Origin: Eledone cirrhosa
Taxonomy: Eukaryota
Assembly (NCBI GenBank): GCA_964016885.1
Contig: OZ024742.1
Location: 99,882,001-99,946,000, forward strand
Direction: 5' to 3'
DNA: 64,000 nt
The translations under genes were made by a program, and so were the position numbers. Below, piece after piece: positions 3,816 to 64,000 of this stretch. The notes under the pieces were generated by a model. It ran no database searches, was not told the origin of the DNA, and saw nothing but the letters and a program-made list of their open reading frames with translations. Position 1 is the first letter of the stretch. Each line of letters starts with the position of its first letter.

Positions 3816-6740
3816 CAAAAAAACCTCACTCCTCAGCAACAAAGAACAAAAACAAAAAAACACTCCTTACCAACAAAGAGCAAACACAAAAAAAACTCAC
3901 TCCTCACCAACAAAGAGTGAAAAATAAAATAGAGACGATGTTTGGTAACAGTAGAACCAGAACTCTCCAATATAAGCTGATCACCCTCAAACAAGAATTG
4001 AGAGCTGTTAGCGAAAACGCCGATAACTGAAGAAGGTAGATGAGAGAAAAATGCTTAATAAAAGATTCAGACGAAACAAATCATCAGTCTATAGAGATAT
4101 GAAGGGCAAAATAATAAGTGTCACTGAGGCCCCATCCCAGAAAGACATAGATTCCTTTTAGAGAAAAATATGGGGTGAAAAGGAAAATTTCAACCAGGAT
4201 GCAGTGTGGCTAAGAAAAATCCGAAAGAACTATTGCTCCTACACTACAACAAAAACATACGAAATAAGTGAGGGTACCCTTGAGACTGATATAGGAAAAC
4301 TCCAAGATAATAAAACACCAGGAAGAGACATGATTGTCGGCTACTGGTATAAAAAGCTAATATTCTATCGGAGGTATCTTACTCACCTCTACCATCAAGA
4401 TCTTAAGGGAGATACACTTATACCAGAATGGTTGACATTAGCACAAACGTTACTGGTCCCCAAGAACAAAGACATCCACTTGGCAAAAAACTACCGACCC
4501 ATTGCATGCCAGAACCTGATGTATAAGATGTATACAGCCTACCTGAACCTATTCCTCCAAGATCACTGTGAAAATAATAACATCATCACAGATGAACAAG
4601 CAGCTGGAAAGAAAGGGGTTTGGGAATGTGCTGAACAACTCCTAATCAACAAAACTGCGATGTCGGAGGTGCGACAACTTAGGAGGAATATGACTACAGT
4701 CTGGCTGGACTACAGGAAAGCTTTCGATTTTGTTCCCCACTCTTGGATGATAGAGGCCCTCCAACTTGCTATTGTCAAAGACATTATTGTCAGAGCCATA
4801 GAGAGGCTGTCTTCTTGAGCTACTATCCTAAGTTTAAAGACAGAGAGGGAGGACTCTATTTTCACTGATAAAATAAAATATTGCAGGGATATATTTCAGG
4901 GGGACAGTCTCTGTGTGATATTGTTCATCTTGTCATTAAACCCCTTGTCCTTTCTGCTCAAGAAATGTGAGGGATACATCATTGGCTCACAGGAGGACAG
5001 AAATACGAACCTAACACATAATTTTTTTGTGGATGATCTGAAACTCTATGCCAAGAACATGGATGGGATGAAGAAAAATCTTGACCTGGTTACAACGTTC
5101 TCAAAGGATATAGGAATGGAGTTTGGCCAAGATAAATGCTCATACATGACTGTAAAGCGGGGAAAAACAACAACCCAATCTAGCAACATTGTCATCAAAG
5201 GCCTAACTGTTTCACCAATATCTGATGAGGAACGCGTAACCAGGGAATACTACACCCGATTAAGAAATTTCTGGTCATCGGAACTCTCTGCGCAAAACAA
5301 AACAGTGGCTCACAATGTGTTTGCTGTGCCTGTCCTAACACCAACGTTTGGAATACTCAATTGGACGAGCAGTTGATGTTGGAACTCGAAAAATACTGAA
5401 CAACACCGGAAACTTCCACATCAACAGTGATATAGACCGCCTTTACTTTAAACGTAAGCAGGGAGGCAGAGGCCTAACATCAGTCCAGATAACATTTGAA
5501 TGTCGCATCATATCTCTCCGACAACATCTACGAACCTCGAAGCGTAGGAGCCCGTTTCTCGAGCAAGTCTATCTGCATGAAACAGATAAGATCATGAGAG
5601 TTGGGAAGGAACTCCTTGAGAGATATTCCCTGTGTGATAATCAAAAACTCACACCCAGGGATATCGCTCAGCAGTATCGCAGTAAATCCATGGATGAAAA
5701 ACTGCATACCTATCAGCAAAAAACCATGCATGGATATGTTGCCAGGAAGCTCCAGAGTGAGAGTAATATAGATAAGGAAAGTAGTCTATCTTGGACCAAC
5801 AACCGCTATATTGGCTCCCACTTTGAAGGATACGCTTTTGCAATCCAGGAACAGGAGATTAGCACGAAATACCTGATTCACAAAAGAGATAGGGATGCAG
5901 GCAAAACACCTAGATGTGATAACAAGTGCAGACTCTACAGAACTAACATCGAGGATATCACCCATGTCATCAGCAGCTGTCCAAAGATGTCATCGCGGTA
6001 CTATCTACCTATGAGGCATGATGTAGTGGCCAAAACACTGTACAATGCAGTTCGTAAAAAAGACAGCCCCGATAAACTCATTAAAAGCTACAAGAATGTG
6101 GAAGACATCCATGTAAATAATATGAAAGAGTACTGGTGGAATGTTTCAGTAAAAACCCCAATAAAATGCAGGCATAACAGACCAGATATTATGATATGGG
6201 ACAGGGAGAAGAAAGCATGCACAGTAGTGGAAGTTAGCTGTCCAGCAGATGCCAATATAATATCAAAGATTAGTGAAAAGGAGAATATTTATGCAGAACT
6301 GATGAGAAATCTGCAGATACTCTACCCTGATTACACCTTCAGATTTATGCCTGTGATTATTGGGGCACTGGGGTATGTTAGTAACTGCCTCAATACAAAT
6401 CTTGAGAAGCTAGGCTTCAAAGGAACAGAAAGAATACAACTAGTTAGGAAATTACAAGTACAATCCATTAATGGAACAGTAAAAATATGTAAAACATTCC
6501 AAAAATGTTGCATCTAATAACTGCATATACACATGTACAGATATAAAGCATGTACACATGCACACATACAACTCAAAACATCCACATCCACACATACAAT
6601 AACATCCATATCTACACATGCATACATACATATCTACCTAGTTGATGTTGTGTAAATTCCAATGAGAGAGTCTTGTGTCTATGTTAGAAACCGACTCTCT
6701 CTCTATTGGTAAAACTGTGTGAAATTATAAAACCAGAAGA
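3816..6740 (+). mobile_element. 5'-truncated R4/Dong-clade non-LTR retrotransposon (RT + CCHC + restriction-like endonuclease)
   Basis: RT motifs NYRPIAC, WLDYRKAFD, RGIFQGDSL, FFVDDLKLY. C-terminal CRL..EDITHVISSC, RHD, RPDI, VEVSCP. Flanked by (CATA)n at 3765-3815 and 6741-6792. Confidence 0.9.
4204..6517 (+). pseudogene. Disrupted RT-RLE ORF of the R4/Dong element
   Basis: ORFs 4204-4818 and 4915-5376 are in frame across TGA 4816-4818. Frameshift near 5370 into ORF 5348-6517. Confidence 0.88.
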
Positions 6741-30394: not shown

Positions 30395-30794
30395 TATTCA
30401 CCGAACATTTATTATAATGCTCGGTGTGTTTGTAAACAAACATCCCGTATTAAGCTGTACAGTGTCTAGCAACCATCGTTGCGCATTTGTTCAACACTAA
30501 CAAAGGAACGCTGTACTAGTTTCAAGCTTATTAGCTATCGTCAGCAACGTATACCTTCCTGCCAGATGATTGAACGTCTGAAAGTTTTTCCGTTTATCGT
30601 TTTCGGTACGCCCGGCCGATTAACTCACTCGATATGCAAATTAGGCTGACGATAGCTAATAAGCTTGAAACTAGTACAGCGTTCCTTTGTCAGTGTTGAA
30701 CAAATGAGCAACGATGGTTGCTAGACACTGTACGGCTTAATTCGGGATGTTTGTTTACAAACACACCGAGCATGATAATAGATGTTCGGTGAAT
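30395..30794. mobile_element. Fold-back (~150-bp arms) containing hammerhead ribozymes; Penelope-like inverted termini
   Basis: 30395-30545 is the reverse complement of 30645-30794. Confidence 0.8.
30508..30550 (-). ncRNA. Minimal type-I hammerhead ribozyme
   Basis: ACGTTG-CTGACGA-TAGCT.AATA.AGCTT-GAAAC-TA-GTA^-CAGCGT. 6-bp stem I, intact core, palindromic stem III (ACTAGT). Mirror core on + at 30646-30682. Confidence 0.8.
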
Positions 30795-62074: not shown

Positions 62075-62081
62075 TATATAC

Positions 62082-62136
<55 letters not shown>

Positions 62137-62175
62137 CATACATATATATATACACATACATACATATATATATAC

Positions 62176-62252
<77 letters not shown>

Positions 62253-62286
62253 CATACATACATATATATATACACATACATACATA

Positions 62287-62328
<42 letters not shown>

Positions 62329-62393
62329 CATACATATATATATATATATACATACATATATATATATATATACATACATATATATATATATAT

Positions 62394-62466
<73 letters not shown>

Positions 62467-62495
62467 CATACATATATTTATATACATACATACAT

Positions 62496-62534
<39 letters not shown>

Positions 62535-62630
62535 CATACATATACATACATACATATATATATATATATACATACATACATATATATATACATATATGTA
62601 TATATATATATATACATACATATATATATA
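62075..62630. repeat. Compound (TA)n/(TACA)n microsatellite
   Basis: Direct reading. Confidence 0.95.
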
Positions 62631-62806
62631 GAGAATTTAGTATATCTACTAACATATGCGTACAGATGTACGCTAATGCTAGCAAATACACAGGTTATGT
62701 CATAGTACCTATGTGGTTCAATGCAGGAGGATGCAGAACAATAATATAAAAGACGTAAAATAAGAAAATTTTAAAAAATTAAAAAAATTAACTTACTAAA
62801 ATTTTC

Positions 62807-62888
62807 ACTCCAACTAATTAGTTTCTGCAATGGGATAAAGACAGTTACGTAATCTAACTGTCGAGAATTCATTGCGTCATCAGGGAGT
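62807..62888 (-). ncRNA. Type-I hammerhead ribozyme
   Basis: ACTCC-CTGATGA-C-GCAATG..(GACAGTT/AACTGTC)..CATTGC-A-GAAAC-TAATTA-GTT^-GGAGT. Confidence 0.8.
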
Positions 62889-63852
62889 CTATTCTCAGCT
62901 AAGTCTCCAGGCAATGCGCGGACACTGGGGACTCATATAAAAATAATAATCATTCGGTAGATGGAACAGCTAGCGGGGATTGGATTCCATGCACTGAAAA
63001 GCTCGCTGTAACTGGTCAAATGGCAGATTCTAAAGAATCAATCACGTGACACTGAGGCTAGTCGGTAGGAGTGGGATGGTAAAATGACAGAAGCCTACTA
63101 TTACACCAATAAATTAGTAGTGGTTTTGGCAGGTTTGCTCGACAAATAAGTAATTTGGAGATAAGTATAGAGAATTTAGTATATCTACTAACATATGCGT
63201 ACAGATGTACGCTAATGCTAGCAAATACACAGGTTATGTCATAGTACCTAGGTGGTTCAATGCAGGAGGATGCAGAACAATAATATAAAAGACGTAAAAT
63301 AAGAAAATTTTAAAAAATTTAAAAAATTAACTTACTTACTAAAATTTTCACTCCAACTAATTAGTTTCTGCAATGGGAGTGAAAATGGAGTGAACATTTT
63401 AGTAAGTAAGTTAATTTTTTTAATTTTTTAAAATTTTCTTATTTTACGTCTTTTATATTATTGTTCTGAATCCTCCTGCATTGAACCACCTAGGTACTAT
63501 GACATAACCTGTGTATTTGCTAGCATTAGCGTATATCTGTACGCATATGTTAGTAGATATACTAAATTCTCTATACTTATCTCCAAATTACTTATTTGTC
63601 GAGCAAACCTGCCAAAACCACTATTAATTTATTGGTGTGATAGTAGGCTTCTGTCATCTTACCATCCCACTCCTACCGACTAGCCTCAGTGTCACGTGAT
63701 TGATTCTTTATAATCTGCCATTTGACCAGTGACAGCGAGCTTTTCAGTGCATGGAATCCAGTCCTCGCTAGCTGTTCCATCTACCGAATGATTATTATTT
63801 TTATATGAGTCCCCAGTGTCCGCGCATTGCCTGGAGACTTAGCTGAGAATAG

Positions 63853-63934
63853 ACTCTCTGATGACGCAATGAATTCTCGACAGTTAGATTACGTAACTGT
63901 CTTTATCCCATTGCAGAAACTAATTAGTTGGAGT
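63853..63934 (+). ncRNA. Type-I hammerhead ribozyme (mirror copy)
   Basis: Same fold with stem I ACTCT/GGAGT; predicted cleavage between 63929 and 63930. Confidence 0.8.
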
Positions 63935-64000
63935 GAAAATTTTAGTAAGTTAATTTTTTTAATTTTTTAAAATTTTCTTATTTTACGTCTTTTACATATA

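Follow-up and report, generated by a model that had tools for sequence, protein, structure and literature searches.

Non-LTR retrozymes are described, in the accessible parts of the two relevant reports (Cervera and de la Pena 2020, PMC7229834; Li, Clavereau and Pollet 2026, bioRxiv 10.64898/2026.07.22.740005), as non-coding head-to-tail units of low GC content with one type I hammerhead each, which occur as dispersed short multimers as well as in long arrays and which co-occur with Penelope-like elements (PLEs). By definition they lack LTR, PBS and PPT, their RNA cleaves itself and is expressed in the form of linear and circular monomers, and homology to a pLTR is frequent. Their mobilisation by PLEs was inferred in these reports from the co-occurrence and from pLTR phylogeny, and insertion ends are not described in the parts mentioned. 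In the axolotl hammerhead, stem II begins with a U-U mismatch at its base (PMC7229834), and eight of nine Xenopus retrozyme dimers were found uncut (bioRxiv 10.64898/2026.07.22.740005). According to the accessible text of Cervera and de la Pena 2014 (PMC4209133), the minimal hammerheads of PLEs possess a short helix I, an extra base at A9/G10.1, the pair G10.1-C11.1 and a palindromic loop 3, and cut poorly in vitro.

Insertions of EN+ PLEs consist of head-to-head arms with 5' truncation, an inverted 5'-truncated pLTR, and an optional tail of 30-40 bp that extends one arm, as far as described in the sections available of PMC3846280 and PMC8557442; a (TA)n target is characteristic of the Hydra clade. 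Naiad and Neptune also favour microsatellites. For the Poseidon element PAc of Anolis carolinensis (Frangieh et al. 2024, PMC11167929), the accessible text reports that both strands are cut and extended in vitro and that two internal starts downstream of the hammerhead define the tail. The start site has no homology to the target there, the two sites did not differ in strand, hammerhead cleavage was dispensable, and neither RNA ends nor reads were found at the hammerhead.

The window analysed here is a stretch of 64,000 nucleotides (C3:99,882,001-99,946,000) of the genome of Eledone cirrhosa, which comprises 3.0 Gb, is AT-rich and is dense in microsatellites. Near its end, at 62627-63997, lies an element of two head-to-head arms, with 1.38 units on the minus strand followed by 1.13 units on the plus strand; the inverted segments 62744-63355 and 63386-63997 are complementary at 98% across 612 nt. 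The initial annotation, which had been made from the letters alone, had described about 1.4 tandem and about 1.1 inverted monomers, and this was borne out. Likewise, no recognisable open reading frame is present, as the only frames of at least 150 codons touching the element are those continuing into the (TA)n tract. The monomer length of 539 nt had to be corrected, since the unit from cut to cut measures 543 nt in both window arms and in the family; the shorter spacing is due to a 4-nt TAAG indel in the 3' units. This spot is variable inside many insertions of the family, for which reason a heterodimeric template, considered because both window arms carry the indel in register, was rejected.

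Unit coordinates are given with +1 as the G directly 3' of the predicted cut GTT^. The minus arm (62627..63378, about 752 nt; locus L001 741-1492) comprises unit 520 to 543, 1-543 and 1-189, and its 3' end at +189 merges into a (TA/TACA)n microsatellite of 556 bp (62075..62630, detected with TRF), which forms the left target flank. The plus arm (63387..63997, 611 nt) comprises unit 1-543 and 1-72, with its 5' end at +1 and its 3' end at +72, and is followed by a few AT bases and then by unique sequence. The motif GGAGTGAA occurs at 63376, 63387 and 63930 on the plus strand and at 63354 and 62811 on the minus strand. The predicted cut sites are read through in the complete hammerhead motifs of both arms (minus strand, 62807..62888, predicted cut 62812/62811; plus strand, 63853..63934, predicted cut 63929/63930) and also in a half hammerhead (its 3' part, unit 520-543 with +1; 63354..63378, minus strand, predicted cut 63355/63354) that constitutes the 5' end of the minus arm. 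Between the arms lies an 11-nt duplication of +1..+11 (63376..63386, plus strand), whose first three bases (GGA, 63376-63378) are common to the end of the minus arm and represent a microhomology. In the initial annotation the plus arm began at 63387 and was preceded by an 11-nt false start. The position and the duplication both stand, whereas the direction does not: reverse transcriptase travels 3' to 5' on the RNA, and 63387 is therefore the terminus of the plus-arm cDNA, so that the duplication was likely the last piece copied, presumably in a re-copying after run-off.

Target-site duplications are unreadable because the target is (TA)n, and no empty paralogous target site could be reconstructed for the window copy from the adjacent duplicated blocks. 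A tRNA-Val cluster (39415-60853) lies in degenerate duplicated blocks; ARAGORN called 13 genes there, with the anticodons AAC, CAC and TAC, and Rfam matched tRNAs 16 times. Elsewhere in the window, at 4162-6515 (plus strand), three open stretches of 185-392 codons show the motifs QGDSL and DDLKLY, which resemble those of reverse transcriptases; this region is probably a broken non-LTR retrotransposon.

The hammerhead proposed by the initial annotation could be assigned to type I in each arm. It is composed of a stem I of 5 bp, CUGAUGA (CTGATGA at 63858 on the plus strand and 62883 on the minus strand), one extra base, a stem II of 6 bp that is closed by a G-C pair and carries an insert of 39 nt (51 nt for the stem II region), one extra A, GAAA, and a stem III with GUU at its end. 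As had been claimed, the sequence of this stem (AACTAATTAGTT) is perfectly palindromic, with a predicted self-dimer of -10.8 kcal/mol and no stable hairpin as a monomer. In 11 distinct copies from seven clusters the three helices were paired in 96% of the cells, two of the six stem II pairs were altered on both sides across subfamilies, and the core is near invariant among subfamilies up to about 30% divergent; the covariation is supporting evidence, short of decisive because the sequences are few and related. All structural features of PLE minimal hammerheads listed above are present, in comparison to which the element adds an unpaired A before G12, which is unusual, and a structured loop II of 39 nt, and its activity is predicted. 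Rfam gave no hammerhead match at the gathering score or at E<=10, probably on account of the long stem II, and its scans returned only tRNAs and chance miRNA-like hairpins. In subfamilies 1-5 the predicted active fold is less stable than the minimum-energy fold by 2.5 kcal/mol. Furthermore, a helix between +1-7 and +191-198 is predicted for 13 of 13 aligned copies, which is invariant and hence shows no covariation; in the predicted fold bound by the reverse transcriptase this helix would close the local hammerhead. The flanks of many loci contain at least eight further families of type I hammerheads with palindromic stem III, several of them with stem II regions of 36-61 nt whose base lacks a standard pair, and hammerheads of this kind also occur in the window, at about 30500-30550 (minus strand).

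Exact patterns matched the genome 5,783 times for +1..+20 (directly 3' of the predicted cut), 4,542 times for about +91..+110, 4,063 times for the hammerhead core and 3,046 times for +49..+72; these are counts of units and not of insertions. From 48 full units seven clusters were obtained, with unit sizes of 508-571 nt and a GC content of 32-37% in the subfamily consensus units (37% for the unit of this element), which is under the 50% that bounds non-LTR retrozymes. Arms reach up to 3.9 units, with a median of less than one unit. A tandem array of about 72 kb was found on C12 (G000 C12:24,461,532 to about 24,533,180; L210-L214), with about 130 units as estimated from seven stretches of 10 kb. 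Its units measure 546-562 nt and are 3.6% apart; it begins at unit 451, stops near +32 and is flanked by TA tracts. An LTR-flanked layout was found in none of the mapped loci. With 543-560 nt the unit is longer than the 170-400 nt given in the accessible text of PMC7229834 and lies within the range of 51-972 bp of Li, Clavereau and Pollet 2026 (bioRxiv 10.64898/2026.07.22.740005), and in comparison to the retrozymes of these accounts the element has a long stem II and is known here from sequence alone. At the level of sequence the element fits the definition of a non-LTR retrozyme, which supports the class proposed in the initial annotation.

The 3' ends of the copies were examined in a positional sample of 96 individually mapped loci along C1, drawn from the listed pattern matches for +49..+72 and for about +91..+110; segments within TA tracts were removed before the counts. 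Among 108 called insertions, 61 were two-armed. In all two-armed insertions with both ends typed (57/57), one arm ended at +72 and the other at +186-189, and pairs of the same type did not occur; as one locus is a duplicate, 56 of the pairs are independent. The remaining four of the 61 had one atypical end and were left untyped, as were seven single-arm calls with atypical ends. Single-arm calls ended at +189 (23), at +72 (18) or elsewhere (6), and some of them conceal a very short second arm. Twelve two-armed loci from among the top matches likewise showed the +72/+189 pairing. The two sites lie 11 and 13 nt behind predicted long hairpins, located in the window at 63402..63447 (+16..+61) and 63511..63562 (+125..+176, with compensatory changes), both on the plus strand, and a folding z of -4.8 was predicted for unit +1..+204. 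Both sites finish in a TA motif and continue into (TA)n, with a median tract of about 40 nt at each; 67 of 72 +72 ends read directly into ATATATAT. One copy (L015 1324-2137) resides outside (TA)n, in a PLE coding region, and ends at +177 and +66, which are still paired.

This two-site rule is a more telling signal than the junction at the cut site. It shows the mark of PLE-type insertion, i.e. inverted 5'-truncated arms with a tail on one side and a (TA)n target, and lends support to the Penelope-type mobilisation assumed in the initial annotation; that the inversion is best read as two cDNAs primed from two fixed sites had not been seen there. Compared with EN+ PLEs (available sections of PMC3846280 and PMC8557442), the element lacks an ORF, and its tail amounts to 117 nt and occurs on exactly one arm in every typed pair. 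Relative to Poseidon PAc, as described in the accessible text of PMC11167929, it shows TA microhomology at both sites, a strict split of the sites between the two ends and genomic 5' ends that accumulate at the predicted cut. Its ends show directly the PLE pattern, which in the published retrozymes was deduced by other means (accessible parts of PMC7229834 and bioRxiv 10.64898/2026.07.22.740005).

The excess of 5' ends was determined genome-wide from copies that lose both of two diagnostic upstream bases. The initial family search had started at +1 and was ranked by coverage, which biases its counts of 5' ends, and these were excluded. At the cut site 121 of 5783 raw matches ended (three positions), in comparison to 18 of 4542 at a control site (three positions; p=4e-15), 58 of 4063 at a second control (four positions) and 58 raw matches in the seven positions just upstream of the cut site. 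As judged by eye, internal indels or duplications made up about 11 of the 100 cut-site matches listed and 5/18, 34/58 (19 from the C12 array) and about 8/58 of the control matches. The corrected rates per 1000 passes and position amount to about 6.1 at the cut site and 0.95, 1.5 and 1.2 at the controls, i.e. a 4-6-fold excess in the genome-wide test that the initial annotation had proposed; in relation to the overall rate of the positional sample (2.2 per 1000 nt) the excess is only about 3-fold. The initial annotation is thus supported as far as a non-random link between 5' ends and the predicted cut site is concerned. About 98% of the passes nevertheless continue through this site, and both window arms also read through an intact site, so that the template cannot simply have been one cleaved monomer.

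In the positional sample, three of 159 arms end at 543-+2 and 28 of 159 within +1..+30 (about 5 per 1000 nt, compared with 2.2 overall). Ends in +3..+11 gave 761 raw matches, a figure without a denominator to which other subfamilies and 1-nt deletions contribute many cases, and many of these matches sit at the palindrome AAAATTTT. Because the excess is broad and joints fall at a palindrome, microhomology or stalling contributes to it. It could even be argued that twin priming holds and that the entire +1 excess is caused by stalling of the reverse transcriptase at RNA structure and by AT-rich microhomology, with the hammerhead leaving the inserted templates uncut. The spread over +1..+30, which includes the palindrome at +7..+14, the pairing of +1-7 with +191-198 as a possible barrier and the dispensability of the hammerhead for the anole PLE in vitro (PMC11167929, accessible text) agree with this. 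Nevertheless, this explanation is unlikely. The end rate drops about 5-fold directly upstream of the site, and a stall would be expected 3' of the helix rather than at +1. Among the 100 matches listed, the partner arm also ends at +1..+4 in 17 of about 65 two-armed junctions (by eye; p=5e-10 against an assumed 4%), and in five loci (L104, L119, L120, L125 and L131) both arms are flush at +1. In addition, the re-copy junction with the 11-mer has seven matches in the genome (control 2), four of which lie inside element copies, including the window copy, and reach the same end. Of 26 arms with an end at +1, ten stop there on their first pass and 16 on a later one. Relative to the exposures in the sample, 124 first and 51 later passes, this gives an odds ratio of 3.9 (p=0.002); the count omits four of 30 loci, which are complex or have an internal deletion.

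How the two arms are related to each other can be seen from the pairs themselves. Of 73 ends at +189, 21 bear between 1 and 30 additional CT units that keep the phase of the TCTCT in the element, which is best read as slippage during initiation on the sense RNA. The arms are nested in 34 of 54 simple pairs and non-nested in 20, and the latter means that one arm is no copy of the other, finished arm. The lengths of the arms within a pair are uncorrelated (rho 0.00), arm-arm junctions mostly lie within 3 bases of blunt, and in 31 of the 32 long pairs both arms belong to the same subfamily, pointing to a single template or a single source. In the published model for head-to-head PLE palindromes (PMC3846280) the inverted arm originates from self-priming or fold-back on an antisense template, and the tail has been ascribed to endonuclease resolution (PMC8557442), as far as the accessible text of both sources shows; the fixed ends would then be cuts of the endonuclease in an intermediate. 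Nested pairs and the perfect palindromes at some junctions are in line with such a model. For this family it is nonetheless improbable, rather more so than stalling, since the in-phase (CT)n fits initiation on sense RNA, the non-nested pairs exclude copying of one finished arm, and the start sites of the anole PLE in vitro coincide with the tail ends (PMC11167929, accessible text). Moreover, antisense RNA does not contain the hammerhead, and fold-back therefore gives no reason for ends at +1.

A linked PLE frame, as the initial annotation had suggested to look for, was not found. About 11 kb past the end of the window, a broken Hydra-type PLE in partial tandem is located (L032 680-4100, minus strand), which shows RWR, DKT and CxCX5C. 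Its assignment to the clade rests on these motifs, as Pfam gave no name for any of three segments of it; the Hydra clade is marked by an RWK-like motif, DKT and CxCX5C and inserts into (TA)n, according to the available sections of PMC8557442. This PLE carries its own hammerhead with palindromic stem III and GUU triplet and ends about 38 nt past the predicted cut, within a CA/TA tract. A second Hydra-type family (L168-L202), scored from the best 150 of 44,948 first-look candidates, is very abundant and contains one open frame of 741 codons. In 27 of 30 of its copies TTGCATAG is followed by a GTAAGT-type segment, which is missing in L168, L173 and L177; it looks like an intron that is retained in the former and spliced out in the latter. 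Neither family has nucleotide similarity to the unit, and the mobiliser can therefore be assigned by class only. We infer that the Hydra clade is the favoured candidate, in view of the (TA)n target and the abundance of the clade here.

A search with Hydra-type queries only did not reveal a partner PLE, and at the loci examined no ORF for reverse transcriptase plus GIY-YIG was present in the unit or continuous with it. At L080 a PLE seemed to continue into the unit; this turned out to be an insertion of the element in the TA tail of that PLE. Since adjacent coding sequence was sought with Hydra-type proteins only, since pLTR fragments of PLEs yield the same inverted structures and since a long tandem array exists on C12, the repeat might be taken for the terminal repeat of an autonomous PLE that has escaped recognition, or for a satellite spread at the DNA level, instead of a self-contained mobile RNA. 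This is very improbable: arms that pass position 1 enter another unit, an all-against-all comparison of 65 5' flanks revealed no shared non-microsatellite sequence upstream of the junction, PLE ORFs adjoining element copies are separate insertions, and the combination of fixed 3' ends with scattered 5' ends, like the slippage, is a mark of retrotransposition. That the inverted structure at 62627-63997 is an assembly artefact deserves hardly any credence, even though its junction lies beside long microsatellites and is not covered by contigs of four public runs, since its two arms are not identical (12 differences in 592 sites), two other loci (L130 and L133) have arms ending at the same GGA, through which L130 is joined to +1, more than half of the insertions of the positional sample are two-armed under the same rule, and other head-to-head junctions occur in short-read contigs of one study, one of them mapping at 62812. 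The structure is genuine. Its youth, deduced in the initial annotation from the similarity of the arms, holds only in relative terms (2.0% between the arms, compared with 3.0% for two-armed pairs overall).

Taken together, the element is probably a non-LTR retrozyme for which a PLE-like enzyme primes both cut (TA)n ends on the same RNA. A PLE reverse transcriptase-endonuclease would nick both strands of (TA)n, whereupon one DNA end would find its annealing site in UAUAU at +72 and the second in CUAUA at +189, with occasional slippage. Both cDNAs would be extended toward the 5' end of the RNA, usually passing the hammerhead site on an uncut multimer, on a ligated circle or by a template jump, and would be joined head-to-head through short microhomology. 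In a minority of the templates, cleavage by the hammerhead would provide a free 5' end, and the cDNA would run off there, at +1. The +72 cDNA of the window copy may have crossed one intact site and run off at the next one (63387), re-annealed about 10 nt back and run off again, before it met the +189 cDNA through GGA. The +189 cDNA extends 24 nt past the equivalent site, so that a single cut linear RNA is insufficient for both arms, unless the nick was bridged by a jump or a second RNA took part.

As arms reach several units in spite of a median below one unit, multimers must be regenerated in some way. A circle or a long array could achieve this, and the array on C12 could supply linear multimers. 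Units diverge by 3.2% inside an arm and by 3.0% and 4.0% between arms, which does not separate circle from multimer, and units of the same locus are not clearly closer to each other than to those of other loci.

It is conceivable, though rather doubtful as a whole, that the family records the entire cycle, with an asymmetric dimer of the reverse transcriptase, stutter on UCUC and a hammerhead that is held shut acting jointly. The dimer would grip one RNA by the two hairpins and would thereby assign one start site to each target end, exceptionlessly. A telomerase-like stutter on UCUC before commitment would seed (CT)n microsatellites. The local hammerhead would be kept shut by the helix of +1-7 with +191-198, and mainly upstream hammerheads would cut, which would account for the 3.9x higher frequency of +1 stops on later passes.

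In the parts consulted of the open-access papers, a precedent was found neither for the strict pairing nor for the (CT)n stutter nor for a genomic excess of ends at the hammerhead. In the cited papers the origin of the inverted repeats and tails of PLEs, the cutting of hammerheads in vivo and the enzyme that moves animal retrozymes are open. This family offers countable answers, because one site is used per target end, slippage marks identify the starts and the fraction of templates ending at the ribozyme site can be measured. With its two mapped start sites, the non-coding RNA of 543 nt is furthermore a compact substrate for PLE reverse transcriptases in vitro.
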